A stretch of 64,000 nt of DNA from a virus (taxonomy: Duplodnaviria; Caudoviricetes), in the IMG/VR virus record IMGVR_UViG_3300042935_001404; one strand, written 5' to 3'. The notes below the pieces were generated by a model, which did not search any database, was not told the DNA's origin, and worked only from the letters and a program-made list of their open reading frames with translations. Of the stretch, positions 29,922-58,833 are shown piece after piece. Every line of letters begins with the position of its first letter. Position 1 is the first letter of the stretch. A program made the position numbers and the translations under genes.

Positions 29922-29947
29922 AAAGGGCCTCCGGGCCCTTTACTTTT
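29922..29947 (+). terminator. Rho-independent terminator closing the structural module
   Basis: AAAGGGCC-TCCG-GGCCCTTT hairpin followed by ACTTTT. Confidence 0.85.
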
Positions 29948-29967
29948 ATCTACATTTCCTGTATAAT
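29939..29967 (+). promoter_or_regulatory. Sigma70-like promoter TTTACT-N17-TATAAT driving the enzyme island
   Basis: -10 element TATAAT at 29962-29967, 7 nt before the ATG at 29975. Confidence 0.65.
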
Positions 29968-32440: not shown

Positions 32441-33353
32441 TGTAGCAGACCTAGACTGCATCTACTTAACCTACGACGAACCACAGAAGGAAGAATTCTG
32501 GGTAAAGATTCGCAACATGGTGCCTTGGGCAAAACGTGTTGACGGAGTCAAAGGGTCAGATGCCGCACACAAAGCTGCCGCAGCCGCAAGTGACACAGAG
32601 CGTTTTATCTTAATTGATGGCGACAACATGCCGTACCCAGAGTTCTTTAATCAAACCCTAACGTTCCCTACCGCTGACTATGAACGTGCAGTATTCCGTT
32701 GGAGAGCATGTAACAACATCAACGGACTCATGTATGGCAATGGAGGTATGAGTTCTTGGACACGCACATTTGTCAACGAAATGAAAACACACGAGAACAC
32801 AGATGGCACAGCCGCTACCGAAGTAGAGTTTTGTTTTGATCCTTTATACTGGGCCATGCATGATTGCTACAGCACAACCTATCCCAATGGTTCAGCGTTT
32901 CATGCTTGGCGAGCCGGCTTCCGTGAAGGTGTTAAGATGTGCTTGAACAAGGGTGTGCGTCCCACTGTGGCAGAGTTCAAGAACCGTGTGCACCAACGCA
33001 ACCTAGACAACTTGACTGTGTGGCACAACGTAGGTCGTGATGCTGAACATGGAGTTTGGGCCATTGCTGGCGCAAGAATGGGCACATACATGACCATGCT
33101 GACCAACTGGGACTACAAACAAGTACAATGGTTTGATTCGTTAAATGAGTTGTGGGAAACAGTCAAAGATACCGAGCCTGAACTACTGTTGGGCCGTGTA
33201 GCCGAAGAACTAAGCACACAGTTAGACTTGCCAATGGTGTGGTATGAAGAAGAAGCCAGCAAGTTCTTTAAACATCATTATCGTAGCGGCTGGCATAACC
33301 AAGGTGTTATGATTCGCGAAATTGATGTAATTAGAAAGCAAGAAGGCTGGTAA
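32427..33353 (+). CDS. Glycosyltransferase, GT-A fold (GT2-like)
   Basis: LDCIYLTYDEP, GVKGSDAAHKAAA, FILIDGDN (DxD), NGLMYGNGG, AWRAGFREGVKM. Confidence 0.7.
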   Translation: MNQIDVADLDCIYLTYDEPQKEEFWVKIRNMVPWAKRVDGVKGSDAAHKAAAAASDTERFILIDGDNMPYPEFFNQTLTFPTADYERAVFRWRACNNINGLMYGNGGMSSWTRTFVNEMKTHENTDGTAATEVEFCFDPLYWAMHDCYSTTYPNGSAFHAWRAGFREGVKMCLNKGVRPTVAEFKNRVHQRNLDNLTVWHNVGRDAEHGVWAIAGARMGTYMTMLTNWDYKQVQWFDSLNELWETVKDTEPELLLGRVAEELSTQLDLPMVWYEEEASKFFKHHYRSGWHNQGVMIREIDVIRKQEGW

Positions 33354-33928
33354 TGCAAAAACGATTGCTTTTAGATGGGTGTAGTTTTACCTATGGACTT
33401 AATTTGCTACACAATCAAAAATTAGAGCAGCACTTTGTTGAATCAGGATACGAAGTAGTTAATTTGTCACGCCCAGGTAAAAGCAATTCGGCTATTTCGT
33501 TAGACCTGTACAACAATATGGATTCTTGCGACTTATTAGTAGTAGGATGGACCTTTAGTTCTCGGTGGCATTTAAAATACCACAATCTTGACATTGATTT
33601 ACTAGCCACTAGAGAACATGTAGAATTGCCCTACACGGTAGACAGTAGATTAATAGAACAAAGTTATCAAGAGTTGCATCGGTCTTTCTACAGTTTATTT
33701 GATGCAACACATTGGAATCAACAAAGTGATATGCTAATAGACAATACAGCGGCACTGGCAGCACATCGCGGCAAACAAGCAGTATTTTTCAGCTGGGAAT
33801 CTAGAAAAGTTGCATGTGATATGCATTACCCGCATGTGCCATCCTCGCATCGACTGCCTTGTGGACACTTAAATGCAGACGGCACAACCAATCTATATAA
33901 TACGTTAACACATCTAATAGAACAATGA
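33353..33928 (+). CDS. SGNH/GDSL-fold hydrolase or acyltransferase-like protein
   Basis: DGCSFTYG (block I), NLSRPGKSN (block II), CGHLNADG (block V). Confidence 0.65.
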   Translation: MQKRLLLDGCSFTYGLNLLHNQKLEQHFVESGYEVVNLSRPGKSNSAISLDLYNNMDSCDLLVVGWTFSSRWHLKYHNLDIDLLATREHVELPYTVDSRLIEQSYQELHRSFYSLFDATHWNQQSDMLIDNTAALAAHRGKQAVFFSWESRKVACDMHYPHVPSSHRLPCGHLNADGTTNLYNTLTHLIEQ

Positions 33929-35310
33929 GCACCGGCGATCAAAGTAAATTTATGAGTCTGGCAGAGCAGATGAAAGAGGATCTTGGTCCTGCATTGTGCC
34001 TGGCCAAGTGGAAGCAAGTAAGTCTACATCTACCCACCGGGCTTAATAATTCGTGTTACCATCCGCCATTACATCCAATCTCTGCCAACGATTTACAACG
34101 CCCAGGCGGCATACATAATACTGAGCATAAAAAACAACAACGCATGATGATGATTCGCGGCGAAAAGCCCACTGAGTGTCAGTACTGTTGGAACATGGAA
34201 AATCTAGGCAAACTTTCAGACAGACATTACCGGTCGGGCGAGGCCTGGGCCGCAGTGGACTTTGAAAAAATTAAAAACAGCGTAGGCAATGAAGATGATG
34301 TTGTTCCTTCCTATGTAGAAGTTAATTTTAATCATGCATGTAATCTAAAGTGTAGTTATTGCAGTCCACAGTTTAGCAGTAGTTGGGGCGAAGAAATAGA
34401 CCGATATGGTGCGTTCCCTACTAGCAAGCCGCACAATGCTCCGGAACATTTTGTAGGCAATCGTAAACCTATTCCTGTAAGAGAAGACAATCCTTATGTG
34501 GATGCATTTTGGGAATGGTGGCCCGCCCTGTACCCACAGTTAGAACATTTCCGTATGACCGGTGGCGAACCGCTAATGGATCGAAACACTTATCGAGTGT
34601 TTGATTATGTATTAGAGCATCCTAGTCCCAAACTACACTTAAATGTAACGTCAAACTTTAGTGTAGAAGATCAACTGTTTAAAAAGTACATGTCCTATGT
34701 AAAGCGGTTGTGTACACCCAACATCGAACACTTCATGCAATATGTTAGTTTGGACTCTGGCATAGCACCACAAGCAGAATATATACGTCACGGATTAGAT
34801 TATGATCGCATGTCCAAGAACGTTGTGGAGTTCCTACAAGACATTCCTTATCGCAACAGTTTGACATTTATTGTTACAATGAATAACTTAACAGTAACAG
34901 GACTACAACCTTTGTTAGAATGGATATTAAACCTACGCAAACTATATTCTAACACATATCAACGTGTGTGGTTTGATACTCCTGTGCTACGTGAACCTGC
35001 TTGGCAAAGTTTACAAATACTTCCAGAAAGTTATGCACAACAATTAGAACGTGCTAGAGATTACATGCTGGCTAACATGATTACAGAAGCTAACCCTTTA
35101 CACGGATTTAAAGATTACGAAGTGCAACGTATTGAACGTGATATTGCGTGGATGCGTGAAGGACAACACAAAGATAACTTGGTAGCAAAAGCAGATTTTT
35201 ATCGTTTCTTTAACGAGCACGATCGCCGACGCGGCACCGACTTTTTAACAGCTTTTCCTGAAATGCGATCATGGTGGGCAGAATGTGAGTACCATGCTCG
35301 GCAATCGTAA
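33925..35310 (+). CDS. Radical SAM enzyme with N-terminal Twitch/SPASM-like Cys domain (rSAM-1)
   Basis: CNLKCSYC (CxxxCxxC), RMTGGEPLM; N-terminal LCLAKW...SCYHP...ECQYCW. Confidence 0.9.
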   Translation: MSTGDQSKFMSLAEQMKEDLGPALCLAKWKQVSLHLPTGLNNSCYHPPLHPISANDLQRPGGIHNTEHKKQQRMMMIRGEKPTECQYCWNMENLGKLSDRHYRSGEAWAAVDFEKIKNSVGNEDDVVPSYVEVNFNHACNLKCSYCSPQFSSSWGEEIDRYGAFPTSKPHNAPEHFVGNRKPIPVREDNPYVDAFWEWWPALYPQLEHFRMTGGEPLMDRNTYRVFDYVLEHPSPKLHLNVTSNFSVEDQLFKKYMSYVKRLCTPNIEHFMQYVSLDSGIAPQAEYIRHGLDYDRMSKNVVEFLQDIPYRNSLTFIVTMNNLTVTGLQPLLEWILNLRKLYSNTYQRVWFDTPVLREPAWQSLQILPESYAQQLERARDYMLANMITEANPLHGFKDYEVQRIERDIAWMREGQHKDNLVAKADFYRFFNEHDRRRGTDFLTAFPEMRSWWAECEYHARQS

Positions 35311-36433
35311 ATTTATTATTGACACCATGAGCGAGGTTTACAGTATGATGAAACCTTACTCAGATGACGAGTTGTGGGATCTAGGCGCTCATGAAATTCA
35401 ACCCAACTCAATCTATCTGTTAGGCCGCAAGCAAATGGTAGAACACACAGATCGTGTTAGAGAAATGGCTGCTGACCCAACTATAACTGTGATATTTGGT
35501 AACAGTGCCGAAGGATCTAAAACGATTGTAGATCAATTGCGTGTGTTAAAAATAGAAGACTTAGTGCTGTCAGGGAAGATATTGCTGTTGAGTGGCGGCG
35601 AAATTGAACCTCAATATCCATATTTGTTGCATGAACATTTTATCACACACATACTAGATTATAAAGAAAACATTCAAGCACAACAACGCACTGATGAAAT
35701 TTTTAACAAAAAAATTAAACCTTATAAATTTTTATTTTTAAACGGGCGGGTACGTTCTCATAGAAAATATCTGCTTGAAAGATTGCGTCAACTGGGCATT
35801 TTAGACAGTGCAATCTGGACCATGTTAGATGGCCGAATTCCAACTAATCAATATTTTAGTCTACATGAAAACGGCATAGATGTAATTGGCCAAAATACTG
35901 CGATTAAACAGTTGCCTTCAGAATACGAATTTAAATTTTTTAAGAATAAATCTATTGTGTTGGATTACCCACATAAATTTGCCAAAAATGAATTGTTTGA
36001 TACTCACTGGGGTGAAATTTATTTAGAACCTGCTCCGTACATTGACACTTATTTTAGTTTGGTAACTGAAACTGTGTTTGAATATCCTTATAGTTTTAGA
36101 ACAGAAAAAATTGCCAAACCATTGGCAATGGGCCATCCGTGGATCTGTGCTGCCAGTGTGGGATTTTATCGAGACATGCACAAATTGGGATTTCAAACAT
36201 TTGGACATGTGATAGATGAAAGTTTTGATACAATCGACAATCATCAAGATCGAATGGAAAGAATAGCAATGATAGTCAAAGATTTATGTCAACAAGATCT
36301 TGCAAGTTTTCTAAATGAATGCTATAATGTATGTAAATACAATCAACAACACCTTGCAGAATTGCGCACACAGTGTCGCAAAGAGTTTCCTGACCGTTTC
36401 CAACAATTTATCAATGAACGATTTAGATTTTAA
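35294..36433 (+). CDS. Glycosyltransferase-like protein (GT-B-type C-terminal domain)
   Basis: FLFLNGRVRSHR; FSLVTETVF...RTEKIAKPLAMGHPW...GFQTFGHVIDESFD. Confidence 0.55.
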   Translation: MLGNRKFIIDTMSEVYSMMKPYSDDELWDLGAHEIQPNSIYLLGRKQMVEHTDRVREMAADPTITVIFGNSAEGSKTIVDQLRVLKIEDLVLSGKILLLSGGEIEPQYPYLLHEHFITHILDYKENIQAQQRTDEIFNKKIKPYKFLFLNGRVRSHRKYLLERLRQLGILDSAIWTMLDGRIPTNQYFSLHENGIDVIGQNTAIKQLPSEYEFKFFKNKSIVLDYPHKFAKNELFDTHWGEIYLEPAPYIDTYFSLVTETVFEYPYSFRTEKIAKPLAMGHPWICAASVGFYRDMHKLGFQTFGHVIDESFDTIDNHQDRMERIAMIVKDLCQQDLASFLNECYNVCKYNQQHLAELRTQCRKEFPDRFQQFINERFRF

Positions 36434-37772
36434 ACATGAAATTTTAGACACCAAGAGTGCAAGTTTTTGTGCGGCCAAATGGTACAATGCTACCATATGG
36501 TTGGGAAGTGGACAAACTACCAGTTGCCACCATCCACCGGCACACTCAATTGATCTGGATGCGTTGGCCGCCAATCCTTCTGCGCTACACAACACCGCAA
36601 AGAAAAAAGATGATCGGCGACTGATGTTAGCGGGCAAACGTCCCACAGGTTGTGAATACTGCTGGAAGATTGAAGACATGGGCAAAGATTCCGTATCTGA
36701 CCGTGTGTACAAAAGTAAAATTTACCCTATAGAGGCCTTAAATGATGCATACCAAACCCCCCACACAGAAGATGTCAATCTTCGCACACTTGAAATTGCG
36801 TTCGACCGCACTTGCCAATTTGCTTGTTCTTATTGTAACCCTGCTTTCAGTAGCACATGGGTTAATGACATTAAAAAGCACGGACCTTATGTCGGTCTGG
36901 TGTCAGATGGGCGTAATCACTTTACTCATGCTCATGCTAGCAGTCAACTATACCGATTTGGTGAAACAAATCCCTACGTTGAAGCGTTCTTTAAATGGTG
37001 GGAAACTGACCTACACCGAACGCTCCAAGAACTGAGAATAACCGGTGGCGAGCCGCTGATGAGTGCTGAGACATGGAAACTGATTGATTGGTTTAAAAAC
37101 AATCCAGGCAGATCAACCACTCGGTTAGCAATCAATTCTAATCTTGGCGCAGATGTTGATGTAGATAGACTTATTGAAAGCACACGTGGCCTGGATGTAG
37201 AAATTTACACATCTATGGAGGCTGTTGGTGCTCACGCAGAATACATTCGAGATGGACTAGATTATCACGCTTGGGAAAATAATGTAACTAAACTGTTAGA
37301 CAGTCACGTAGGTGCAGTACACGTAATGGCCACTATTAATGCATTGTGCTTGACAACATTGCCAATGCTTCTGCATTATGTAGTACAACTTAAATCAAAG
37401 TATGGTCGTAAACGTGTTAACTTTACATTAAATATACTGAGATTTCCTAGTTTTCAAAGTCCACTGGTACTGCCCCGGGCATTGCTTACACGTCATATGC
37501 TTGACTTATCTAATTTCTTAAAGCGTTGGAAAACGGTTCCAGACATACTGCACGAACACGAAATTAATCACCTACAGCGATTAATTGATTATTTAGATGT
37601 AGTAAAAACTCCGCATTCAGACGCATTTGACATGCCTAAGTTACACAATGACTTTAAGCAGTTTTACACACAGTATGACCAACGCCGCGGAAAAAGTTTT
37701 AAAGATACATTTAAAGACAGTTATCCAATAGACGTAACATTATCAACATGGTATGACTCAATACAAATATAA
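36414..37772 (+). CDS. Radical SAM enzyme with N-terminal Twitch/SPASM-like domain (rSAM-2)
   Basis: CQFACSYC, RITGGEPLM; FCAAKW...SCHHP...GCEYCW. Start at 36414 chosen to minimise overlap. Confidence 0.9.
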   Translation: MNDLDFKHEILDTKSASFCAAKWYNATIWLGSGQTTSCHHPPAHSIDLDALAANPSALHNTAKKKDDRRLMLAGKRPTGCEYCWKIEDMGKDSVSDRVYKSKIYPIEALNDAYQTPHTEDVNLRTLEIAFDRTCQFACSYCNPAFSSTWVNDIKKHGPYVGLVSDGRNHFTHAHASSQLYRFGETNPYVEAFFKWWETDLHRTLQELRITGGEPLMSAETWKLIDWFKNNPGRSTTRLAINSNLGADVDVDRLIESTRGLDVEIYTSMEAVGAHAEYIRDGLDYHAWENNVTKLLDSHVGAVHVMATINALCLTTLPMLLHYVVQLKSKYGRKRVNFTLNILRFPSFQSPLVLPRALLTRHMLDLSNFLKRWKTVPDILHEHEINHLQRLIDYLDVVKTPHSDAFDMPKLHNDFKQFYTQYDQRRGKSFKDTFKDSYPIDVTLSTWYDSIQI

Positions 37773-39036
37773 TTCAACAGACCTGGTACGTCCAACAGAA
37801 CTTTCGGAACGTGAAGAATTTTTATTAAAAGATTCCAAAACATTCTGCATCTACCCTTGGATACACTTACACGCATATCCCACAGGCGAAGCATATCCTT
37901 GCTGTCATGCTGAAATGGGTGTGGGCCAAATTGGCAACTGCAGATCAAACACACTGGCAGAAATATGGAACAGTCCAGAACAAAAACAACTCAGAGTTGA
38001 CATGCTGTCAGAAACCCCCAACCCGGCCTGTGGTCGTTGCTACGAACAGGAAGAGTCGGGATTTTTCAGTGGCCGCAAAAGTGCCAACAAGCACCACGGG
38101 CATCATATCAATCGAGTAGGTAATACCAATGCTGCCGGGCAGGTTGATCAATTTGAAATGACCTATTGGGATCTGCGATTTAGTAATCTTTGCAATTTAA
38201 GTTGCCGTAGTTGTGGGCATATCTTTAGTAGCAGTTGGTATAAAGATCAATCCGAGTTGGCCGGGCCTGCTTGGGCCAGTCAAAACAAACCTCTTAACTA
38301 TGCTGGTCGTTATGCCACTGACTTGTGGGAACAACTGATCGAGCATATTGATCACGTGGAGCAGATTTACTTTGCCGGCGGCGAGCCCCTGATGATGGAA
38401 GAGCACTACCTGATTCTAGAAGAACTAGAACGTCGTGGTCGCTTTGATGTTAGACTAATATACAATACTAACTTTACACAAACACGACTTAAAGACCGTA
38501 CAGTATTTGATTACTGGCGCAAGTTTGACAGTGTAGCAGTTGGGGCAAGCCTTGATGCGTCTGGTCCACGCGGTGAGTACATACGCAAAGGCACAGACTG
38601 GGCTGTGGTAGAATCAAATCGCAGACAAATGATGGAAATATGCCCCAGAGTAGACTTTTACATCAGTCCCACACTTAGTATTATGAACGCATTACATCTT
38701 CCAGACTTTCATAGAGACTGGGTAGAGAAAGGTATGTTAACGCCTCAAGACCTTAATGTAAACATACTGCAAGACCCTGCATATTTAAGAATTGATATTG
38801 CGCCCAGCGAATACAAACAACGAATACAGTCTAAATATGAACAGCATTTAGAATGGTTACGACCGTTGGATCAACTGAATCGTGCCACTGTGGGATTTGA
38901 AAGCGCCATTACATTTATGAACAGCACTGACAACACACAGCTACTTGACACTTTTTGGCGTAAGACGCACGAGCTTGACAGCATTAGACGAGAACATGTA
39001 CTTGATGTGTTACCAGAATTAAGAGCAATTAAATGA
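37753..39036 (+). CDS. Radical SAM enzyme with N-terminal Twitch/SPASM-like domain (rSAM-3)
   Basis: CNLSCRSC, YFAGGEPLM; FCIYPWIH...YPCC...ACGRCY. Confidence 0.9.
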   Translation: MTQYKYNSTDLVRPTELSEREEFLLKDSKTFCIYPWIHLHAYPTGEAYPCCHAEMGVGQIGNCRSNTLAEIWNSPEQKQLRVDMLSETPNPACGRCYEQEESGFFSGRKSANKHHGHHINRVGNTNAAGQVDQFEMTYWDLRFSNLCNLSCRSCGHIFSSSWYKDQSELAGPAWASQNKPLNYAGRYATDLWEQLIEHIDHVEQIYFAGGEPLMMEEHYLILEELERRGRFDVRLIYNTNFTQTRLKDRTVFDYWRKFDSVAVGASLDASGPRGEYIRKGTDWAVVESNRRQMMEICPRVDFYISPTLSIMNALHLPDFHRDWVEKGMLTPQDLNVNILQDPAYLRIDIAPSEYKQRIQSKYEQHLEWLRPLDQLNRATVGFESAITFMNSTDNTQLLDTFWRKTHELDSIRREHVLDVLPELRAIK

Positions 39037-40427
39037 GTACATGGAACGAATTTTACAATCAGATACGTGATCCGTTGTGGCCCGATTGTGAAAATGAATA
39101 CGAGTTTAAATCTCTTCCAGAAAACATACAAAAAGAGTGCATTGAAATTTTTGGATATGCGCCAGGCTCTTTTAAAAATAAATCTAAATTACTTAATAAG
39201 AAATTTCCTATTGTAACTGATACCGCATGTCAACTTAAATGGACGTGGAGTACTATATTTCTATCCACTGGCAAAACTGCCAGTTGTCACAGAACAAACC
39301 ATCATAAATTTAACACAGATACGTTTGAATTTCACAATACACCGAGCAAATTAGATGATCGTACTAACATGCTCAACGGGGAATGGCCCAACATTGGATG
39401 TGACTATTGTAAAAACATCGAAAAAGCAGGCGGACAAAGTGATAGGATTACCAACTTGGATTTTCCTGGGATTCATGCGCCACCAGAATTAGACCAAGAC
39501 CCAACAGCAATTCATGTCACTCCGAGAATACTTGAAGTTTATTTTGATAATACATGCAATTTAAAATGTCTTTATTGTGGCCCACATTTCAGTAGCTTGT
39601 GGGATGCAGAAAATATTAAATTTGGAGATGCTGCATTTCTTAAAGATGCAAACTTGGAACACAACAAGAAAAAGTTATTTGAATGGTTAAAAATCAACGG
39701 TCACAATCTTTCAGTATTTAATATACTAGGCGGTGAACCACTTTATCAAGAAGAATTAGAACAATGCTTGACATTATTTGAACAACATCCATCGCCTGAA
39801 TTAAAAATACAAATTTTTACCAATTTAAATATTAAACTGTCACGTTTGCAAAAAATTATTGATCGCATTAAACAATTAATTGATAATAACTGTATTAGAG
39901 AATTTGAAATTACTGCCAGTCTTGACTGCTGGGGACCGCAACAAGAGTATGTTAGGTATCCGTTAGATCTTCAGGAATGGGAAAAAAACTTTGAATACTT
40001 ACTAAGTAACTCCTGGATAAATTTAATTGTAAGTTCCACTGTTACTCCTCTAACTATTAAAACACTTCCAGATTTATTGATAAAAATTGCCCAATGGAAT
40101 AAAGTCAGAACAGTATATCATTATCAAAATTCAGTCAACGACCCAGGCTATATGTTTATTGATATATTTGGAGATATATTTAAAGATGATTTTGATCAAA
40201 TAATTAAATTAAAACCAGCAAACACACCGGAAGAAATATCTAGTAGAGATTACCTAATAGGCATAGCAAAACAAAGTCAGTCGGTTGCTCCTGACGTTTT
40301 TAAAATTGGTCAATTGTTTAATTTTTTAAATAAAATGGATCTACGAAGAAATACCAGTTGGAAGTTTACATTTCCTTGGTTAATTGATGAATTTAAAAAA
40401 TATGACCTACACACAGAAAGCAATTGA
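39033..40427 (+). CDS. Radical SAM enzyme with N-terminal Twitch/SPASM-like domain and extra ~55-aa N-terminal module (rSAM-4)
   Basis: CNLKCLYC, NILGGEPLY; ACQLKW...SCHRT...GCDYC. Confidence 0.9.
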   Translation: MSTWNEFYNQIRDPLWPDCENEYEFKSLPENIQKECIEIFGYAPGSFKNKSKLLNKKFPIVTDTACQLKWTWSTIFLSTGKTASCHRTNHHKFNTDTFEFHNTPSKLDDRTNMLNGEWPNIGCDYCKNIEKAGGQSDRITNLDFPGIHAPPELDQDPTAIHVTPRILEVYFDNTCNLKCLYCGPHFSSLWDAENIKFGDAAFLKDANLEHNKKKLFEWLKINGHNLSVFNILGGEPLYQEELEQCLTLFEQHPSPELKIQIFTNLNIKLSRLQKIIDRIKQLIDNNCIREFEITASLDCWGPQQEYVRYPLDLQEWEKNFEYLLSNSWINLIVSSTVTPLTIKTLPDLLIKIAQWNKVRTVYHYQNSVNDPGYMFIDIFGDIFKDDFDQIIKLKPANTPEEISSRDYLIGIAKQSQSVAPDVFKIGQLFNFLNKMDLRRNTSWKFTFPWLIDEFKKYDLHTESN

Positions 40428-41009
40428 ATGAAGGGACTAGCATTAGGATGTAGTCACACTGCAGGAGTAGGAGTATCGGCAACAGAATGTTATGTTTCTT
40501 TGTTGTCGACGCATTATAACTGCGAGATTATTAATACTGCTGTGCCAGGCGGAAATGCAGAAAACTGTTTAAAACACCTAGTAGCACAGTTACGTGCAAG
40601 AACTCCAGATTTTGTAATAGCACAATGGCCAAATCCCATTAGACGAACACTTTGGATTAATAACAAACCTCAGTGTGAAACTATACAAAGTTCTAGTACT
40701 ACGTTTCATTTGTTGTTAAAGTCAGGAATTGACAATTTTATTCAGCCTTGGTTGCAGTGTATTATTACTGCAGATACTTTATGTAAGTTTGCCAGAATTA
40801 AAATTGTGCATATTATGCTAGAAGATTTAGATTCTAAATATGTTGATGTTCTACATAACAATGATATAACATTACATAGAGATTTAAAAAAACCTGGGCA
40901 AACATGGTTATTTGATTCAGCCGGGTCAGACAACCTACATCACTCACCACGTTGTCACGCCCAATGGGCAGAACGATTAATTGGACTATTAAATGAACAT
41001 ACCACATGA
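40428..41009 (+). CDS. SGNH/GDSL-fold hydrolase or acyltransferase-like protein
   Basis: LGCSHTAG, NTAVPGGN, DNLHHS. Confidence 0.65.
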   Translation: MKGLALGCSHTAGVGVSATECYVSLLSTHYNCEIINTAVPGGNAENCLKHLVAQLRARTPDFVIAQWPNPIRRTLWINNKPQCETIQSSSTTFHLLLKSGIDNFIQPWLQCIITADTLCKFARIKIVHIMLEDLDSKYVDVLHNNDITLHRDLKKPGQTWLFDSAGSDNLHHSPRCHAQWAERLIGLLNEHTT

Positions 41010-42213
41010 CACTTTTTGCGTGTTGCCTTGGATCTCACTGGAGGCCAGTCCTGTTGGGACTGTACGTCCTTGCTGTCTGGCCATGGACGAAATCACTGAC
41101 AGCAACGGAGACAAATATAAACTAGCAACAACTGGATTGGGCGAAATACAAAATAGCCGAGCAATGAAAACTCTGCGAGAAGACTTTCTTGCTGGTAAAA
41201 AACCGCAGAACTGCCGTCGTTGCTGGAATGAAGAACGTGCCGGTCGTACCAGCAAACGTATGCACACACTGGACAGACTCAAGCACATGATCGATCGTGA
41301 TGTTGATTGGACCCAGGATGCAATGCCATTGATGTTCCTGGATCTTAAACTAGGCAACATTTGTAATTTAAAATGTCGTATTTGCGGCTCGTGGAGTAGT
41401 AGTCAGTTTGCCGCAGAAGAAATCAAATACAATCGTGCTGAAGATACTCGTGGTAGCTTTGCGTATCAGATGCTTCGAGACGGCGCCTGGCCCAGAGAAA
41501 GTGTAGAGTTTTGGACGGACCTGGACCAACACTTGGACAACATACGCTACATTGAGTTCACCGGTGGCGAGCCTTTTATGATTCAAGAGCATTTTCAACT
41601 GCTACAAAAATTAGTAGACACTGGCCGTGCAGCACAAGTTGAAATACACTACAACACCAATGGTACACAGTATCCAGAAGAAGGCGAAGCCATCTGGAAA
41701 CACTTCAAGAATGTTGAAATTGCCATCAGCATCGACGATGTAGCAGAACGGTTTGAATACCAGCGTACCAATGCTGTGTGGTACGAAGTGGTTGAGAATG
41801 TAGAGCGTTTTCGCCAACTACGCAGTCGTAACAGTAACATCACATTACAGGCCTGTTGCACTATCAACGTGTTCAATGTGTACTATCTTGAAACTGTGGC
41901 CAATTGGTTAATACAACAGGGATTTGATTTTATCTACTGGAACATGATGCACGATGCCTATTACTTTAGTATTAGTACATTGCCAGAATCAGCCAAAGCA
42001 GAAATCACTACAAAACTAACCTCTGCAACTGTTCCGCCTAAGATACTTAAAGAGTTTGTCAGTGCGGCCGAGTTTATGAATCGTGGCAACAGTCTAGATG
42101 GACATTTGTTACGTATGAATCTACGTGACCTTGACCATAAGAGAAAGCAAAACTTAGCACAAGTGGCACCAGAGTTTGCGGCATTGATCGACTATGACTA
42201 CAACAAAACCTGA
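40993..42213 (+). CDS. Radical SAM enzyme with N-terminal Twitch/SPASM-like domain (rSAM-5)
   Basis: CNLKCRIC, EFTGGEPFM; FCVLPW...RPCC...NCRRCW. Confidence 0.9.
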   Translation: MNIPHDTFCVLPWISLEASPVGTVRPCCLAMDEITDSNGDKYKLATTGLGEIQNSRAMKTLREDFLAGKKPQNCRRCWNEERAGRTSKRMHTLDRLKHMIDRDVDWTQDAMPLMFLDLKLGNICNLKCRICGSWSSSQFAAEEIKYNRAEDTRGSFAYQMLRDGAWPRESVEFWTDLDQHLDNIRYIEFTGGEPFMIQEHFQLLQKLVDTGRAAQVEIHYNTNGTQYPEEGEAIWKHFKNVEIAISIDDVAERFEYQRTNAVWYEVVENVERFRQLRSRNSNITLQACCTINVFNVYYLETVANWLIQQGFDFIYWNMMHDAYYFSISTLPESAKAEITTKLTSATVPPKILKEFVSAAEFMNRGNSLDGHLLRMNLRDLDHKRKQNLAQVAPEFAALIDYDYNKT

Positions 42214-43492
42214 CATACTGTGCATGGCGCCATGGACACACACGTATCTAAGTCCACAAACAGAACGGCGTATGTGTTGTGCGTCGAGAGAACCTGCGCA
42301 GAGTTTTGAACAGTACATCGACACCGGTGCTGGAACAGGACGTTACACTCCTATTACTTTGGATCAACACTGGAACGGTGAGCACATGCGATCAGTGCGA
42401 CGTCGCATGATGTCTGGCGAAACATTGCCCGAATGCGATGTATGCAATAGCAAATTGCTAAACACCGACGTTTATCGTAGTTATTTTTGGCATTTGTTCC
42501 GACACAAGTATGACGATGTTGTTGCTTCAACAGATGACACCGGGTATACCACAATGAAACCTGTAAGCTGGGACTATCGTTTTAGTAATCTTTGTAACTT
42601 TAAATGCAGAACCTGTGGTGATATGCTATCCAGTGCCTGGGAAACAGAACAAAAAACACATGACATGATCAACTGGCACAATCCTAAAAACAATTGGATG
42701 CGATCAGATGTACGTCAAGAAATAACTAAGTTTCAGGATAAACAAATTGAGGCAGAATTTGCCGACGCAGTTGAACAACATCGTGTAGAAGAAGTATACT
42801 GGGTAGGCGGCGAACCATTGATGTATGAACAGCACTGGCGCTACATGAAAAGAATAGTAGAACTTGGAGATGGAGAAAGAGTATATGCTAGGTACAACAC
42901 CAATCTTAGTCGCATTGAGTATCGTGGCATTAATTTATATCGTGATATTTTATCTAATATACGCGACTGGCAGATTTGCGCTTCCTTGGACGGAACAGAA
43001 GATATCGGAGAATACATACGTACAGGTTTGGAGTATGTATCCTTTTTAAATAATTTTGAGCAAGGACTAGCTTATCAAAAGAACCGAAGACAAATGCGTC
43101 TAGACTTTACACTAACACTGCCCGGAATGTTTGAGATTATCAAAATGGAAAAGTTAGCGCAAAAGTATAATGTAGAGTTGCTGGCCAAAGTGATATTCAG
43201 TTTCGGTCCTGATATTGTTATGAGTCCATTATCATTGCCACGTGATTTACTAGAACCCTGGATTGACGAGTTATTGCCGCAATGTCACACACAAGTAATG
43301 CGAAACATGCTTGCTCAATTGCGCACTCGCCCTACGTTTGCTGAACAATGGCCAGATCAATATGCCGCAGGCATTGCAAAAGGCAAAGCTCGTGTGTTAA
43401 AATTAGAACAGATACGTACACAACCAGTCACAATGACAGACATACTGAGCACCCGGCCTGATGTATTAACGTGGTGGATGAATATACAATGA
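42194..43492 (+). CDS. Radical SAM enzyme with N-terminal Twitch/SPASM-like domain (rSAM-6)
   Basis: CNFKCRTC, YWVGGEPLM; LCMAPW...RMCC...ECDVC. Confidence 0.9.
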   Translation: MTTTKPDILCMAPWTHTYLSPQTERRMCCASREPAQSFEQYIDTGAGTGRYTPITLDQHWNGEHMRSVRRRMMSGETLPECDVCNSKLLNTDVYRSYFWHLFRHKYDDVVASTDDTGYTTMKPVSWDYRFSNLCNFKCRTCGDMLSSAWETEQKTHDMINWHNPKNNWMRSDVRQEITKFQDKQIEAEFADAVEQHRVEEVYWVGGEPLMYEQHWRYMKRIVELGDGERVYARYNTNLSRIEYRGINLYRDILSNIRDWQICASLDGTEDIGEYIRTGLEYVSFLNNFEQGLAYQKNRRQMRLDFTLTLPGMFEIIKMEKLAQKYNVELLAKVIFSFGPDIVMSPLSLPRDLLEPWIDELLPQCHTQVMRNMLAQLRTRPTFAEQWPDQYAAGIAKGKARVLKLEQIRTQPVTMTDILSTRPDVLTWWMNIQ

Positions 43493-44532
43493 TAGATCAA
43501 ATTGAAATTACTTTAAAAGGCAATGACAACAGCACTACGACAGTGTGGATTGATGTTGCAGATAACAGCTTGAGTCACAAATGGCTTGCCGCATTAAATA
43601 CCCTAATCCGTAACAATTATCATTTGGAAAAGAATTACTGTTTTTTTGGATTTGTGCAAAGTCAACGCAACGCAGAATACTTAACCGAACAAATGAACAG
43701 TAGTATTGCTGCCATTAATGCTGCCAACATTGGATATCATATTGACGATTATTTTTCAACTGCTAATACTATTGCGCCCGATGTAAAGTTAATACATGAT
43801 AAGTTAAACTATCTACATCGTTACTTTGAAGATTTGCAAGGTATATCGGGTGCAATGAGTCCTTTTTATACCAAAGCAGATCCCGTGACACGATGGCATA
43901 TAAGACAATTAAATTTGTTATGTCATGAATACGAAAGTCTTGTTCTCAGTATGCGCAAAGCACTTTATACACCTGAATGGCAACGACCTAGTCAACTCAT
44001 GTGTTGGTTACACGCACCGCGATTTGTGTTAGATGAACAAGATTATGAACTGTTTGGAGTTGAAACAATCAATAGGCCACTGGGTGGAGTTTTTGTAGGC
44101 GTAAATAAAGCTGTAGGCAAACACCATTGGGAAGTGTTCAATGATGAAGGACGAGACAGCCGTGTAGGAGAGTTAATAACTACAACGCTAAAACCACAAA
44201 CAGAAGCCGCCGGCGACTTTGACATTGAATGGGCCAACAATCCTGGCACATTTCCGTGGCAGCAAAAAACCTTGACAGATTTTAGAGTATGGTTAACAAA
44301 CAACGGGTTTGATCCAGAAGATAAAAGTCTAACCATTGGACATCCGCAGGTGGCACAGGTAGATTTAATCCGTAGTTTTGGAACAGATAACTATGTAGAT
44401 ATATGGAACACCTTAGGAAGTCATCTTAACGTGCATAAAATACGCACCAGTGATGCAACAGCTACATACAGTTATAATTGGACAGATGCAGATTATGCAG
44501 ATCAACAAATTAAAATAATACAAGGGACATGA
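43489..44532 (+). CDS. Hypothetical protein (347 aa)
   Basis: Long ORF with ATGA coupling; His-containing segments (LNYLHRYFE, LLCHEYE); no family recognised. Confidence 0.7.
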   Translation: MIDQIEITLKGNDNSTTTVWIDVADNSLSHKWLAALNTLIRNNYHLEKNYCFFGFVQSQRNAEYLTEQMNSSIAAINAANIGYHIDDYFSTANTIAPDVKLIHDKLNYLHRYFEDLQGISGAMSPFYTKADPVTRWHIRQLNLLCHEYESLVLSMRKALYTPEWQRPSQLMCWLHAPRFVLDEQDYELFGVETINRPLGGVFVGVNKAVGKHHWEVFNDEGRDSRVGELITTTLKPQTEAAGDFDIEWANNPGTFPWQQKTLTDFRVWLTNNGFDPEDKSLTIGHPQVAQVDLIRSFGTDNYVDIWNTLGSHLNVHKIRTSDATATYSYNWTDADYADQQIKIIQGT

Positions 44533-44533
44533 T

Positions 44534-44635
44534 ATGAACTGGATTAAAAATTTATACAATCGTATTCGTTTAGAAATACGCTATCGTAAAAAACTAAAAG
44601 AACTACGTAAACGAGATCCTTTTATCTACAAATGA
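44534..44635 (+). CDS. 33-aa basic peptide not in the ORF track (MNWIKNLYNRIRLEIRYRKKLKELRKRDPFIYK)
   Basis: Fills the gap exactly and is ATGA-coupled to the carbamoyltransferase. Confidence 0.7.
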   Translation: MNWIKNLYNRIRLEIRYRKKLKELRKRDPFIYK

Positions 44636-46143
44636 AGTTGAAAACATATTTGGGTGTCAGTGCCGGGTTTCACGATGCCGCTGTGAGTGTAATTCAGTCT
44701 GACGGCAGTGTACTTTTTGCCGGGCATGCAGAACGCTACAGCAAAAACAAAAACGATGCACATCTAAATGATTCGATCATTGCAGAAGCAATGTCATACG
44801 CAACTCCGGATGTGATTGCATACTATGAACGTCCGTGGGTCAAAAAACTACAACAACTATATTCGGGACAATATGAGGAAGCCTTTGATTTTGGGAATTT
44901 TACTTTGGATCAGTATTTGCATAAACATCTATCTGATACTGTTCATCGGCAGCAACTACTACGATGCCCTAGAAAATATATGTCCCATCATCATAGTCAC
45001 GCCGCCGCAGGATTCCAATCCAGCCCCTATAACAGGGCCACAGTGGTTGTAATTGATGCCATTGGTGAATTAGACACCGTAACTATCTGGGGAGCAGAAT
45101 ATGATCGATCAGGCATGGCAACGTATAAAAAACTTTGGACACAGCGTTACCCACATTCAATTGGATTGTTCTACTCTGCGGCTACTGGCAGCGTTGGCCT
45201 ACGCCCACTAGACGAAGAATATATCTTGATGGGTATGGCCGCATATGGCAATGCTAGTCACGCTGTTAAAATGCAAGCATTGGTAGAAGATGTAGACACC
45301 ATACGCTTTTGTGAAAATCTACACACAGGAATAGACAGTCAATACCTGCAAGATTTAACTGAGTTTGATATTGCCGCAGGTGCACAAGCCATTGCGGAAC
45401 AATTGATCAACAGCGTGATGCGCAGAGCCAGAGACTTTGGCTGGAGCAACAACTTGGTCTACATGGGCGGTGTTGCTCTCAACTGTAGTGCTAACCGCAA
45501 CCTAGGAGAATACTTTGATAATATTTGGATTATGCCTTGTCCTGGTGACGCTGGCAGTAGTTTGGGCGCGGCAGCACTTGCATACGGAAAACAGATACAT
45601 TGGAAAAACGCCTATTTGGGTTGTGTTATTCCGGGTGCTTATCCTGTTGCTGATATTGTATCTTGCTTACTAAGCGATAAAATTGTTGGTGTTGCTAGTG
45701 GTCGTGCTGAGTTTGGCCCTAGGGCTCTCGGCAATAGGAGTTTATTAGCAGACCCGCGTGGTGCAGACATAAAGGATCGTGTAAATGATATTAAAAGACG
45801 ACAGCAATTCAGACCATTTGCGCCGGTTATTTTGGAGGAGCATGTTGATATGTATTTTGATATGCCTCATGGCTTCCATAACAGTAGGTATATGCAAGTC
45901 ATCGCTCGCTGTAGGCATCCTCACATATTTCCTGCTATCGTTCATAGGGACGGCACTAGTAGGGTACAGACTGTTCCTAAGGATGGCTCCGGAATAAGAC
46001 AACTGCTAGAAGAATGGTACAAGGCAACAGGTTGTCCTATGTTGCTTAACACAAGTCTTAACATACGTGGCGAACCCATGGTAAATGATCGTGCAGACGC
46101 AGATAGATTTGAACAATTATACGGAGTAAAAGTCTGCTCATGA
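44632..46143 (+). CDS. O-carbamoyltransferase, NodU/CmcH/TobZ family
   Basis: GFHDAAV, ERYSKNKND, HHHSHAAAG, MGGVALNC, GDAGSSLGAA, GRAEFGPRALGNRS, FRPFAP, LLNTSLN. Confidence 0.95.
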   Translation: MKLKTYLGVSAGFHDAAVSVIQSDGSVLFAGHAERYSKNKNDAHLNDSIIAEAMSYATPDVIAYYERPWVKKLQQLYSGQYEEAFDFGNFTLDQYLHKHLSDTVHRQQLLRCPRKYMSHHHSHAAAGFQSSPYNRATVVVIDAIGELDTVTIWGAEYDRSGMATYKKLWTQRYPHSIGLFYSAATGSVGLRPLDEEYILMGMAAYGNASHAVKMQALVEDVDTIRFCENLHTGIDSQYLQDLTEFDIAAGAQAIAEQLINSVMRRARDFGWSNNLVYMGGVALNCSANRNLGEYFDNIWIMPCPGDAGSSLGAAALAYGKQIHWKNAYLGCVIPGAYPVADIVSCLLSDKIVGVASGRAEFGPRALGNRSLLADPRGADIKDRVNDIKRRQQFRPFAPVILEEHVDMYFDMPHGFHNSRYMQVIARCRHPHIFPAIVHRDGTSRVQTVPKDGSGIRQLLEEWYKATGCPMLLNTSLNIRGEPMVNDRADADRFEQLYGVKVCS

Positions 46144-47405
46144 CTGATAAACAAGTATTTCCAATCAAAACAGACACAGGATGCTTGCTCAAGTGGGCCT
46201 GGAGCACTGTGTACTTAAATCAAGGCACAAGTGCTAGTTGTCACCGTACAGACCAACAACCCATACCTCCAGACAACTTTGAAAGTTTTCATAATCTGCC
46301 AAACAAAATAGAAGCCAGGCAAATGATGTTGCGTGGCGAATGGCCACAGGGTGGTTGTCAGTACTGCGAAAAGATTGAAACAGCTGGCGGCATGAGCGAC
46401 AGACAATATCAATTACATGCTCGTCATGACCTGGATCGTACTCCGCACGAGTTGTTTAAAGATCCAACTACGTTGGAAGTTGTACCTACCATATTAGAAG
46501 TATATTTCAACAATGTATGCAACATGGCCTGCTTGTATTGCGGCAGTCACTTTAGTACAAAATGGGAAGAAGAGAACCGACGATTTGGTGTGTTTACACA
46601 AGGCAATGTAAACTTTGGGCACAACACACAATCTAATCCCAACTATGAGCGCATGCTGGCAGACTTTTGGCGCTACCTGGAAGAGAAAGATCGTTACAAA
46701 CACATACGCTACTATCAAATACTGGGTGGCGAGCCTTTCTTCCAGGATGAGTTTGACATCAGCATGGACTTCTGGGAAAGTCATCCCAATCCAGAACTTA
46801 CATTTAACATTATTACCAACCTAAAGGTACCACCTAAAAAGTTCCAAGCCTACATTGATCGCTTTGGCAAGATGGTTGAGTCTGGCGCACTAAAACGATT
46901 GCAAATCACAGGTAGTATAGATGCCTGGGGACCACAAGAAGAATATGTGCGGTGGGGATTAGACTTGGCCGAGTGGACAGAAAACTGGGAATATCTACTA
47001 GACAAAGACTGGGTTGTGATGTGCGTGAACAGTGCAGTGTCGGCATTGACAATTAAAACAGCACCTGAGCTAGTGGAAAAGATAAACGAGTGGAACGATC
47101 GTCGCAATCCGTGGAATCCTATTAGCTACAGTTTCATGAGTGTGATGACCCCGCCTGAAATGGTTCCAGACATATTTGGACCAGGCGTGTTTGAACAGGA
47201 CTTTGCACGTTTACTGGCCGCAATGCGAGAACGCAATCCCAGCGAAGTCAGTGCTAAAGAACACATGCGTGGCATTATGAAACAGATTGTAGCAGGACCT
47301 CGCAACGCAGAACGTATTGCTGATTTGAAAGTTTATCTGACTGAAATAGATCGACGTCGTGTCACTGATTGGAAACTGTTGTTTCCGTGGCTGATAGAAC
47401 TATAA
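46140..47405 (+). CDS. Radical SAM enzyme with N-terminal Twitch/SPASM-like domain (rSAM-7)
   Basis: CNMACLYC, QILGGEPFF; GCLLKW...SCHRT...GCQYC; closest to rSAM-4. Confidence 0.9.
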   Translation: MTDKQVFPIKTDTGCLLKWAWSTVYLNQGTSASCHRTDQQPIPPDNFESFHNLPNKIEARQMMLRGEWPQGGCQYCEKIETAGGMSDRQYQLHARHDLDRTPHELFKDPTTLEVVPTILEVYFNNVCNMACLYCGSHFSTKWEEENRRFGVFTQGNVNFGHNTQSNPNYERMLADFWRYLEEKDRYKHIRYYQILGGEPFFQDEFDISMDFWESHPNPELTFNIITNLKVPPKKFQAYIDRFGKMVESGALKRLQITGSIDAWGPQEEYVRWGLDLAEWTENWEYLLDKDWVVMCVNSAVSALTIKTAPELVEKINEWNDRRNPWNPISYSFMSVMTPPEMVPDIFGPGVFEQDFARLLAAMRERNPSEVSAKEHMRGIMKQIVAGPRNAERIADLKVYLTEIDRRRVTDWKLLFPWLIEL

Positions 47406-48199
47406 TAGTCTAGGTTGCTGGGTGCGGACCGTTGGTTGTCCATCTGTTCAAGATCTAATGCTGCCAACACATCCTTACTAGTGGTTGGTTCACGCAATGC
47501 TCGGCCTTGTACATGAATCAAGTCCTGTGCTTGATTATAATGCCAACCCGGATCAATTAGTTCTAACCTATTATTTAATAATACGCCAATACTGGTAAAA
47601 ACACACTTAGGTGGAATTAACAAATTTTTAACGTTGTCAAATTGTTCCAAGGATATTGCGTTTATTAATGATGTCAGCCCAATAGGTCGATCCTGGAAGC
47701 ACAGTTCAAATGCTCCGCCGCATAGATATACATTTTCAACGTCAGGATACTGTGAATTGAGCAAATATACCACCTGGTCCAGAGTCCAGGCCGCAAACAT
47801 TTTCTGATCCTGTCTGAGAGGCATAGTTAACACAGCCGGATTAGTGACTGGTGTATCATGAAGTATAAATTGATTTACAACAGGTCCATGATGGTTGTCA
47901 GAGATTATCTGTGCATGTTCTTGTGCCAACCAGGCTGAACCTGTGTAGGCTGGAACAGCAGGATTGAGATCGGGATTGAACACCTGTCTACTGTTGTGCC
48001 AAATTGGCGATTCTATTGGCGTTGCTGATGTTCCGTGCAATTCGTATTCTGTGTAAGATGCAACCACTATGCACTTTACAAAATCTTGTTGAATAAACTC
48101 GGCTAAGTGTTTAAACATTTGATGCGGCCGATGGCCAACTGGATCTAGCCATGCATCAATGACAATAACCGCACTTGGAGTTCGAAACTTACTGGACAT
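47333..48199 (-). CDS. Cysteine hydrolase (isochorismatase)-like protein
   Basis: AVIVIDAW near the N-terminus and VYLCGGAFELCFQDRPIG resemble the catalytic Asp and Cys segments. Confidence 0.45.
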   Translation of the reverse strand: MSSKFRTPSAVIVIDAWLDPVGHRPHQMFKHLAEFIQQDFVKCIVVASYTEYELHGTSATPIESPIWHNSRQVFNPDLNPAVPAYTGSAWLAQEHAQIISDNHHGPVVNQFILHDTPVTNPAVLTMPLRQDQKMFAAWTLDQVVYLLNSQYPDVENVYLCGGAFELCFQDRPIGLTSLINAISLEQFDNVKNLLIPPKCVFTSIGVLLNNRLELIDPGWHYNQAQDLIHVQGRALREPTTSKDVLAALDLEQMDNQRSAPSNLDYYSSISHGNNSFQSVTRRRSISVR

Positions 48200-49220
48200 G
48201 ACACAGTTCTACTAAACTGGGATTAAACTGTATGCGTCCTGCATATTCCGAATATGCTGTGCCTAAAAAGTACATGGCTGCTGAATGATCTGTATGAGAG
48301 ATGTTGCCAATCACATCATGTTCAGCATAATTGACCCATGTGCCCCAATCTTCTAAGCGGTTAATCACTCCGCTAAATCCCATATCAACACATAGTCGAC
48401 AGAAGTTCTGCATGTCTTGATAGTTGTCTTGCTGTAGCACAAACTTTAACAGTACTTCTGCACCTGTACGTTCTACAGTGCCCTGCAACCAAGTTAAGTT
48501 GGTAATCAACTGTGACCACTGTCCTCCTAGACGCACACGTTCATATACTGGAGCAGAGCCTGCATCTATGCTGATAAAATACTGTGTAATGTGATCAAGT
48601 ATAGGAGAATCATCCAGTTGTTTTTTCAATAACAAGCCATTGGTGAACAACCGAATAGTTTGATTGGGGCCTGGACAAAATTCTCGTATCAATGGTCGCA
48701 TAATAGCACTGGCCAACGGATCGCCGTTGCCACTCATTACAATGTGGCAAGGTTCTTTAAATTCTTCTAACAAACGACGTATGTGTTGTACCTGTGCTAG
48801 TTTGCGATCATACTCGTCGCCAGAGTTGATCATTATTGCCGCAGGCCTGCAACTTGGGCAACGTAGATTACAACTTTCGTCAACGTTGATGCTGACCACG
48901 TGTGTTGTATCTATTTTGCTAGAGTGTACCACACCACATCGATCAACAGCACAATGTGTATAAGCACCAGAATCAATGTCGGCTTGTAATGCCAATGCTG
49001 ACTTGCTGTTCCATACACTGGCCAATGAATCAAAGTCTGAAATTTGTCCTACACTGATTGGCAACCATGCTTCGCATCCACATACAAAACAATCACCTTT
49101 CCAGTCTATAACCAATTGGCGACTGGGTGCATTGCAGTGATTGTCAATTGTTAATTTTAAATCTGCATTGCGCGGTATTGAATTGTAGGAGTGCCGGTTA
49201 GCAATTGGAATGACAAACAT
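48189..49220 (-). CDS. Radical SAM enzyme with N-terminal Twitch/SPASM-like domain (rSAM-8, divergent)
   Basis: CNLRCPSC, SGNGDPLAS; HCNAP...DCFVCGC...HCAVDRC; ATG at 49220 coupled by TAATG. Confidence 0.85.
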   Translation of the reverse strand: MFVIPIANRHSYNSIPRNADLKLTIDNHCNAPSRQLVIDWKGDCFVCGCEAWLPISVGQISDFDSLASVWNSKSALALQADIDSGAYTHCAVDRCGVVHSSKIDTTHVVSINVDESCNLRCPSCRPAAIMINSGDEYDRKLAQVQHIRRLLEEFKEPCHIVMSGNGDPLASAIMRPLIREFCPGPNQTIRLFTNGLLLKKQLDDSPILDHITQYFISIDAGSAPVYERVRLGGQWSQLITNLTWLQGTVERTGAEVLLKFVLQQDNYQDMQNFCRLCVDMGFSGVINRLEDWGTWVNYAEHDVIGNISHTDHSAAMYFLGTAYSEYAGRIQFNPSLVELCHVQ

Positions 49221-57579: not shown

Positions 57580-57590
57580 TTCTTTCCTTA

Positions 57591-58804: not shown

Positions 58805-58833
58805 AGTATAGCATGAGGATTAGTTTTTAGCAA
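58805..58833 (-). promoter_or_regulatory. Sigma70-like promoter TTGCTA-N17-TATACT
   Basis: -10 element ends 5 nt before the ATG at 58799. Confidence 0.6.

Follow-up and report, generated by a model that had tools for sequence, protein, structure and literature searches.

Radical SAM proteins with an N-terminal, BtrN-like Twitch domain in a conserved gene island of a jumbo T4-like phage

The virus record IMGVR_UViG_3300042935_001404 (IMG/VR; Duplodnaviria, Caudoviricetes) is a 114-kb fragment, ~29% complete, of which we analyzed a stretch of 64,000 nucleotides, hereafter called the window (bases 33668-97667 of the fragment). The source is a jumbo T4-like myovirus. The window encodes eight radical S-adenosylmethionine (rSAM) proteins, here numbered rS1 to rS8, and in each of them a Cys-containing auxiliary domain stands in front of the rSAM core. 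Profile and fold comparisons predict that this is a Twitch domain homologous to the C-terminal Twitch domain of BtrN, the 2-deoxy-scyllo-inosamine dehydrogenase of the butirosin pathway (PDB 4M7S/4M7T). As to function, we favor, at a probability of roughly 0.5 and by analogy, a radical tailoring of a nucleotide-linked amino-sugar or glycan in which the N-terminal cluster would serve as an electron sink.

All eight open reading frames (ORFs) listed in an earlier note on this DNA were found to be open at the starts that it gave, and each encodes the CxxxCxxC motif, GGEP (GNGDP in the eighth), and an N-terminal set of Cys. Seven lie on the + strand, with starts at 33925, 36414, 37753, 39033, 40993, 42194, and 46140, and the eighth runs from 49220 to 48189 on the - strand. 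Longer ORF versions of rS2 and rS8 start at 36315 and 49271, respectively; the starts at 36414 and 49220 are preferred, since the resulting overlaps with the preceding gene (20 nt and 1-3 nt) resemble the other overlaps in the block. A motif scan found one CxxxCxxC per protein (residues 139, 134, 147, 175, 124, 134, 127, and 117 in rS1-rS8, respectively), GGEP in seven proteins and GNGDP in rS8, and no conserved Cys cluster after the core or at the C-terminus of any of the eight. The auxiliary domain occupies residues ~5-100, N-terminal to CX3CX2C, in all of them, with its Cys spaced as C-x17/18-C(C)-x37-51-C-x2-C in rS1-rS7 and in a deviating manner in rS8 (C-x14-CxxCxC-x40-C-x4-C). The three subfamily motifs that had been described (AKW..SC.HP; C..PW..CC; FPI.TDT.C.LKW..SCHRT) are all present, and a phylogenetic tree agrees with the corresponding groups rS1/rS2, rS3/rS5/rS6, and rS4+rS7.

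Seven of the eight proteins belong to an existing family. NF033640 (NCBIfam N_Twi_rSAM, "twitch domain-containing radical SAM protein") is a 398-position model with a curated cut-off of 170 bits, and rS1-rS7 match it over its full length (model positions ~1-397) at 222-404 bits (E 1e-65 to 1e-121). rS1 (33925..35310, +; 461 aa; 308.6 bits) has its Twitch Cys at residues 25, 44, 85, and 88, its CX3CX2C at residue 139 (window 34339), and GGEP at 213. The Twitch Cys of rS2 (36414..37772, +; 452 aa from 36414; 292.6 bits) are residues 19, 38, 80, and 83, and those of rS3 (37753..39036, +; 427 aa; 403.7 bits) are residues 32, 50, 51, 93, and 96, with CX3CX2C at window 36813 and 38191, respectively. 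rS5 (40993..42213, +; 406 aa; 350.3 bits), the protein that was modeled, has Cys at 9, 27, 28, 74, and 77, and rS6 (42194..43492, +; 432 aa; 274.8 bits) at 10, 28, 29, 81, and 84, their CX3CX2C motifs lying at window 41362 and 42593. The two remaining members are rS4 (39033..40427, +; 464 aa; 223.3 bits) and rS7 (46140..47405, +; 421 aa; 221.8 bits). rS8 (48189..49220, -; 343 aa) falls outside the family, since its NF033640 match reached 34.3 bits and was confined to the core; it matches Pfam SPASM at its N-terminus (27.5 bits) and Radical_SAM (31.6 bits) and is, as judged from its sequence, a divergent rSAM protein that also has a SPASM-like Cys domain in front. All eight proteins are matched by Pfam PF04055 (E <= 0.01), with scores above its cut-off for rS5 and rS8. 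With the motifs present in all eight and the modeled core of rS5 aligning to rSAM structures (see below), the proteins fall within the radical SAM superfamily, and on sequence grounds the occurrence of eight such ORFs is far beyond chance.

The earlier note had proposed a permuted rSAM family, and the domain order holds. The architecture itself is not new; it is already curated as NF033640, whose members have the same order as rS1-rS7, i.e., N-terminal Twitch, rSAM core, and helical tail. No characterized member of NF033640 was found, and so the architecture has not been assigned to a characterized enzyme, an outcome that the note had regarded as fatal to its proposal. Literature searches on NF033640, on permuted or N-terminal twitch domains, and on phage or viral radical SAM proteins returned no paper on the family. 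With 1,631 clusters (50% identity) at E<=1e-30, the family is very large; it includes head-to-tail tandem fusions of two N_Twi units (P0121, P0124; ~800-870 aa), double units linked by tetratricopeptide repeats (TPR; P0186, P0221), and proteins of 510-530 aa with an extra, Cys-free N-terminal domain of ~125 residues (RIVFY...HIQK...LDISNFFVL; P0123, P0153, P0165, and others).

Domains of the SPASM/Twitch type are described as C-terminal extensions of the core (PMC9012708). The proteins studied here have a homologous auxiliary domain with the putative Cys ligands conserved, but at the opposite end. The whole Pfam SPASM profile matches the N-terminus of rS3 (residues 32-97, 46 bits), rS5 (25 bits), and rS8 above the cut-off, and that of rS6 slightly below it. 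A profile (A3) made from 47 family members, cut to their ~105 N-terminal residues, had BtrN as its sole match among 177,635 PDB sequences (E 2.6e-4), and the alignment covered the C-terminal Twitch region of BtrN with the four Cys in register. The auxiliary cluster of BtrN is ligated by four Cys and is a proposed electron acceptor (PMC9012708). The N-terminal domain of rS5, modeled alone, had a predicted local distance difference test score (pLDDT) of 96.4, and comparing this model to 48,161 chains with VIA-align gave only two at Z>=2, the top one being residues 163-249 of BtrN (Z 3.9, rmsd 4.2 A, 82 residues). In Foldseek, the top two ranks went to the two BtrN entries (prob 0.99, TMq 0.54), and PqqE and SuiB, which are SPASM enzymes, came next. 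The match to BtrN is specific and was the same in all three tests (Pfam SPASM region, profile, and fold). The AlphaFold/Foldseek check that the earlier note had suggested for its N-terminal Twitch fold thus placed BtrN first, and the identification of the N-terminal Cys module as Twitch is borne out by Pfam SPASM, by the BtrN-only profile match in the PDB, and by BtrN at the top of two fold searches. We regard as solid the prediction, from sequence and models, that the N-terminal domain is homologous to the C-terminal Twitch domain of BtrN.

The likeness to BtrN resides in the auxiliary domain. The two share a Twitch domain with four Cys in register, but Twitch is C-terminal in BtrN and N-terminal in the phage proteins, and BtrN was not among the core matches of the latter, i.e., the cores are not especially close. 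The full-length AlphaFold2 model of rS5 (pLDDT 95.8, predicted TM-score 0.92) aligned to rSAM structures over residues 111-370 only, with BlsE (Z 13.0), anSME (12.4), viperin (12.1), SkfB (12.0), and DesII (10.4), and none of the solved structures compared has the whole domain order of rS5. The best structural core matches, BlsE, DesII, anSME, and viperin, act on nucleoside-linked sugars, nucleoside diphosphate (NDP)-sugars, proteins, and CTP, respectively; ~210 core residues align at 16-19% identity, and none of the four has an N-terminal auxiliary domain. Since the leading Z values are tied within ~1, no substrate class is selected. The core is a CX3CX2C/GGEP partial barrel closest to the SPASM/Twitch subgroup and viperin, and prokaryotic viperin and MoaA are also weak NCBIfam matches for most window copies. 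In front of it, the N-terminal domain (~100 residues) has four conserved Cys, or five in the CC subgroup; the part behind it is helical, with a conserved D-x2-R motif at the end. An alignment of 59 family members, among them the seven window copies, shows no variation at the Cys and at three arginines (R89, R258, and R384, numbered as in rS5). These invariant arginines suggest a shared anionic handle on the substrates, e.g., a nucleotide diphosphate, as do the weak matches to viperin and MoaA.

The copies in the window are old. Their pairwise identity is 22-30%, except for rS4 and rS7 (43-45%), whereas each is 71-75% identical to its orthologue in other phages, and a recent tandem duplication was rejected on this comparison. 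Orthologues, counted in 86 related loci at a threshold of >=45% identity, were found for rS1, rS2, rS3, rS5, and rS6 in 77-81 loci (77 for rS1, 78 for rS2, 80 for rS3, and 78 for rS6). In contrast, rS4 (6 loci), rS7 (7), rS8 (7), gene 47333, and two small SGNH-like genes occur in only 1-7 of the 86 and are accessory. Judging from these sequence comparisons, the array is an ancient conserved set, to which a few members were added in particular lineages. In the tree, rS4 and rS7 are sisters (support 100/100); rS1, rS2, and rS4+rS7 form a clade that, within our sample, holds phage sequences only; rS3 is sister to paralogues from a locus, not phage-like, of a metagenome-assembled genome (MAG; locus L083; support 100/99); and rS8 sits on a very long branch. 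A contig of a relative from a metatranscriptomic library joins window position 38633 to 41230, without rS4 and the small gene at 40428-41009, and these two fit an inserted accessory cassette between rS3 and rS5.

The wider genomes of this phage group are rich in the family. In six near-complete relatives, NF033640 matches number 6-16 per genome and reach 16 in the closest one, where identity in these genes is 94-96%. PF04055 matched 13-19 times in each of the five complete relatives (G402-G406), and each also encodes two A-type Fe-S carriers (PF01521, 53-70 bits); in G402, one of the carrier genes (291785-292087) lies ~0.9 kb from an N_Twi gene. Neither IscU nor an A-type carrier was found in the 114-kb fragment. 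That the rSAM proteins make a heavy demand on Fe-S, as the earlier note had supposed, gains indirect support from the two carriers in all five complete relatives searched. Its description of a family "expanded in a virus" stands insofar as complete relatives have 6-16 matches; the copies are ancient orthogroups, not recent duplicates, and rS3 groups with the MAG paralogues. Among 401 Bacteroidota genomes searched (one phylum sampled), NF033640 was found in five, one of which is a MAG with phage-like contigs. Outside phages, a Bacteroidota chromosome has four family copies between a GDSL-like gene, a methyltransferase-glycosyltransferase family 2 (GT2) fusion, and a GT22-like gene, and L083 has a sugar nucleotidyltransferase, ~10 rSAM proteins, GDSL, and AsnB; these represent two independent non-phage pairings of the family with glycan genes. 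Three further rSAM genes, which are not of the N_Twi type (568, 507, and 318 aa), lie upstream of the window on the fragment (G000:C1:22859-27540; L100 4859-9540, -), where they adjoin Rad50/Mre11-like genes and a SegE-type GIY-YIG endonuclease gene; the 568-aa protein has a weak tail resembling short-chain dehydrogenases/reductases (SDR).

The rSAM genes of the window form part of an island that comes after the baseplate and fiber genes. An 18-gene block on the + strand (29975-47405) holds seven of them, and neighboring genes abut or overlap by 1-26 nt (119 nt with the long start of rS2), with one gap only, of 99 nt. Directly upstream of the block (29922..29967, +) are a terminator-like hairpin, the strongest in the region, and then a sigma70-type promoter with an extended -10 element (TTTACT-17-TGTATAAT). 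Of 35 related loci, 24 retain the hairpin, with compensating changes in its stem, together with an exact TATAAT. Within the window, the T4-type late box TATAAATA is restricted to two sites, one at 27580, before the fiber-like gene at 27610, and one at 60204. Since the promoter scan as a whole was not above chance (56 sites vs. 49 expected), what can be said on the timing of transcription derives solely from the position and conservation of this one promoter. Two metatranscriptome runs contained only contigs of relatives, mostly <95% alike; their depth tracks gene conservation and DNA carry-over is possible, and for these reasons they give no evidence of expression.

Several conserved partners of the rSAM genes could be assigned. 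Within the block, gene 44632..46143 (+; 69/86 loci) encodes an O-carbamoyltransferase of the NovN/GdmN/TobZ type (Pfam Carbam_trans_N 109 bits, Carbam_trans_C 165 bits; PDB matches NovN, 2e-46, and GdmN and TobZ, 4e-35). Gene 49220..50239 (-; 56/86 loci), whose stop overlaps the start codon of rS8, encodes an amidinotransferase of the AGAT/StrB1/HsvA/SxtG type, with phmmer matches in the PDB to AGAT (7e-15), StrB1 (2e-13), HsvA (2e-12), and SxtG (2e-10). Further along on the - strand are a DegT/DnrJ/EryC1/StrS sugar aminotransferase (55317-56486; PF01041, 208 bits) and an SDR-type NDP-sugar epimerase/dehydratase (56611-57621; PF01370, 146.5 bits; PF16363, 114 bits). Three paralogous proteins have in common an invariant ET...TEK..K..P motif (TEK motif), which makes the first of them GT10-like by motif only; their genes lie at 35285..36433 (+; 53/86 loci) and at 50232-51419 and 51403-52518 (both -; 45 and 41/86 loci). 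That they are GT10 glycosyltransferases was considered and left unconfirmed, with no match by a profile against the PDB or by Pfam scans of each member, and an atlas feature lead to GT10 for 50232-51419 reached 0.80 only. Two conserved proteins lack assignments: the product of 32427..33353 (+; 66/86 loci) has no Pfam or PHROG match and a weak atlas feature that leads to GT2/GT92/CgtA at 0.83-0.87 only, and that of 43471..44532 (+; 58/86 loci) has no match in Pfam, PHROGs, or the atlas. A small accessory protein with N-terminal G-C-S-x-T-x-G (40428..41009, +; 1-2/86 loci) has a paralogue-like gene at 33353-33928. SGNH-like and GT8-like labels came from motifs recognized by eye only and were not adopted, with no match in Pfam or PHROGs. 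Beyond the island by 1.2 kb is a ThyX gene (Thy1, 137 bits; 58820-59512, -). A DUF389 membrane-type protein (57934-58497) and an HNH endonuclease (phrog_1314; 62335-63642) are also encoded.

In the mechanism that we consider the best explanation, the core cluster would cleave SAM to a 5'-deoxyadenosyl radical, which would abstract an H atom from the substrate, and the [4Fe-4S] cluster of the N-terminal Twitch domain, ligated by Cys throughout, would take up the electron that the substrate radical gives off, in line with the proposal for BtrN. The outcome would be oxidation to a ketone or, depending on the paralogue, epimerization, dehydration, or decarboxylation. The seven copies of the island may then tailor a nucleotide-linked amino-sugar, or a glycan derived from it, one after another or as alternatives, since the paralogues are old and non-redundant, the carbamoyltransferase appears to be co-transcribed with them, and the amidinotransferase, DegT aminotransferase, and SDR are adjacent. 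By the same analogy, the suggestion of the earlier note that each copy acts on a different sugar position is plausible, and an island context of carbamoyl-, amidino-, and aminotransferase and SDR fits it.

Several observations weigh against this explanation. No family member has a known reaction, and the chemistry is proposed by analogy only. The fold and profile scores for BtrN, though significant, are modest (Z 3.9; E 2.6e-4), and the likeness to Twitch is one of the domain taken by itself, in sequence and fold. The three TEK proteins are unconfirmed as glycosyltransferases, and no PF00483 sugar nucleotidyltransferase was found in the six near-complete relatives. A sigma70-type promoter is also unfit for simple co-expression with late virion genes. 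In the closest relative, ~9 copies lie outside the island, beside terminase, RecA-like, helicase, and pectate-lyase-like genes, several of them thus in surroundings other than sugar genes, and another phage has a family copy between Mre11- and Rad50-like genes. Finally, on a 1.46-Mb Bacteroidota contig (L097; G080:C2), two N_Twi genes stand beside five PhyH-type 2-oxoglutarate oxygenases and a WelO5-like halogenase, in a cluster that also has a methyltransferase and a reductive-dehalogenase-like Fe-S protein; with so many C-H-activating enzymes, this context looks like natural-product or peptide tailoring.

Peptides or proteins are indeed the substrates of most SPASM/Twitch rSAM enzymes (anSME, SkfB, CteB, SuiB, PqqE), and the phage proteins could likewise be maturases that cross-link, epimerize, or oxidize residues of a phage protein, such as the 4841-aa fiber-like protein or the products of the upstream fiber genes, or of a small precursor. 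The maturases of peptides that are ribosomally synthesized and undergo post-translational modification (RiPPs) TigE, SkfB, CteB, and ChlB are among the best core sequence or fold matches, TPR repeats, a protein-binding module, are fused to some family members, baseplate and fiber genes precede the island, and stand-alone copies are scattered among core phage genes. We nonetheless think this rather unlikely, though it is the strongest of the alternatives: the N-terminal domain matches BtrN, a small-molecule enzyme, and not a peptide SPASM enzyme; small-molecule or sugar transferases are the enzymes conserved beside the rSAM genes; the block is not preceded by a late-type promoter; no RRE/PqqD-like domain was found with Pfam; and the packed block, which has no space for small ORFs, contains none that is Cys/Ser-rich or a repeat. 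A protein substrate encoded farther away would, however, agree with the last two observations. Somewhat less probable again is that the carbohydrate chemistry is as we propose but the product is not part of the virion, serving instead to remodel the host envelope (superinfection exclusion) or being released as a free, aminoglycoside-like metabolite under a host-type promoter. A conserved sigma70-type promoter, instead of a T4-type late box, directly upstream of the block would agree with such a product, as would an enzyme set reminiscent of aminoglycoside pathways (BtrN-like Twitch rSAM, StrS/DegT-type aminotransferase, StrB1-like amidinotransferase, and TobZ-like carbamoyltransferase). Yet the overall promoter scan stayed at chance level, no exporter or flippase was identified, and PF01761, the dehydroquinate synthase (DHQS) family that includes 2-deoxy-scyllo-inosose (DOI) synthase, was not found in the 114-kb fragment or the six near-complete relatives. 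The setting in which BtrN and NeoN act on aminocyclitols, with DOI synthase nearby, is thus not that of the phage, and because no DHQS-family enzyme was found, a BtrN-type aminocyclitol pathway is unsupported.

Hypermodification of thymidine and cytosine in DNA has rSAM, aminotransferase, and carbamoyl steps, and the phage enzymes might instead tailor a base-linked sugar or side chain of the phage DNA. An early-type promoter would suit DNA-modification genes, ThyX is encoded just beyond the island, and some family copies lie among replication and recombination genes. This reading is improbable in our view: DegT and SDR are NDP-sugar enzymes, a ThyA-family hydroxymethylase was not found in the fragment or the five complete relatives, and the island was not seen to encode a DNA glycosylase, a DpdA-type enzyme, or a kinase. 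An objection of another kind is that the N-terminal domain is a degenerate Twitch domain that has kept a structural Zn site and no redox role, as four Cys arranged as C...C...CxxC can also bind Zn. We regard this as highly improbable, given that each of the four Cys has its counterpart among the ligands of the BtrN Twitch cluster and varies little or not at all in 59 deeply diverged members, that Pfam SPASM exceeds its cut-off, and that relatives encode their own Fe-S carriers. A more specific form of the favored amino-sugar tailoring is also conceivable, although speculative: an NAD-independent rSAM factory following the logic of BtrN, in which radical C-OH oxidation, transamination by DegT, and capping with amidino or carbamoyl groups would, under a host-type promoter, yield a guanidino/carbamoyl-decorated glycan or an aminoglycoside-like molecule. 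If that were true, the N-terminal-Twitch scaffold would be a phage "toolbox" with up to ~16 specificities per genome, supported by phage-encoded Fe-S carriers.

The baseplate wedge protein of the phage shares 34-36% identity with its counterparts in Rak2-like jumbo phages, e.g., Yersinia fHe-Yen9-04 and Xanthomonas XbC2, and the complete relatives are 317-353 kb long, several with terminal repeats. At least 24 lake or freshwater metagenome runs contain DNA near-identical to that of the window phage. A megablast search of the island region against GenBank phages gave no near-identical record, and tblastn of rS3 gave distant matches only (21-24% identity; Ralstonia RsoM2USA and Vibrio K566/K567). 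Behind the gene for the baseplate wedge protein (8829-12263) is a single ORF of 4841 aa (12263-26788, +), probably encoding a giant fiber or baseplate-associated protein. Two contigs of a Haliscomenobacter sp. MAG (Bacteroidota), L001 (183 kb) and L002 (148 kb), share the rSAM island (72-74% identity) with the window phage, and another copy is on a third contig; the contigs resemble a jumbo phage and are either a binning artifact or a weak hint at the host.

An abundance of rSAM genes in phages has precedent. Nishimura et al. (2017) described a marine T4-like genome of 183 kb that encodes 12 rSAM proteins and an A-type carrier (PMC5332604). The genomes of that study share their richness in rSAM and A-type carrier genes with the relatives analyzed here; they are marine whereas the window phage occurs in lake metagenomes, and the study defined no rSAM family, architecture, or conserved island (PMC5332604). 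New in the present work are the conserved array of five orthogroups with a carbamoyl- and an amidinotransferase, and 6-16 family matches per jumbo-phage genome; direct sequence and fold evidence linking the N-terminal domain to the Twitch domain of BtrN; and two Fe-S carriers per genome, together with a conserved host-type promoter upstream of the island. In NF033640, a very large family without a known reaction, the auxiliary Fe-S domain is permuted. That phages devote 6-16 genes to this protein scaffold and encode Fe-S carriers of their own suggests that radical chemistry matters in infection, and the conserved partner enzymes that the island defines offer a basis for guessing at substrates.

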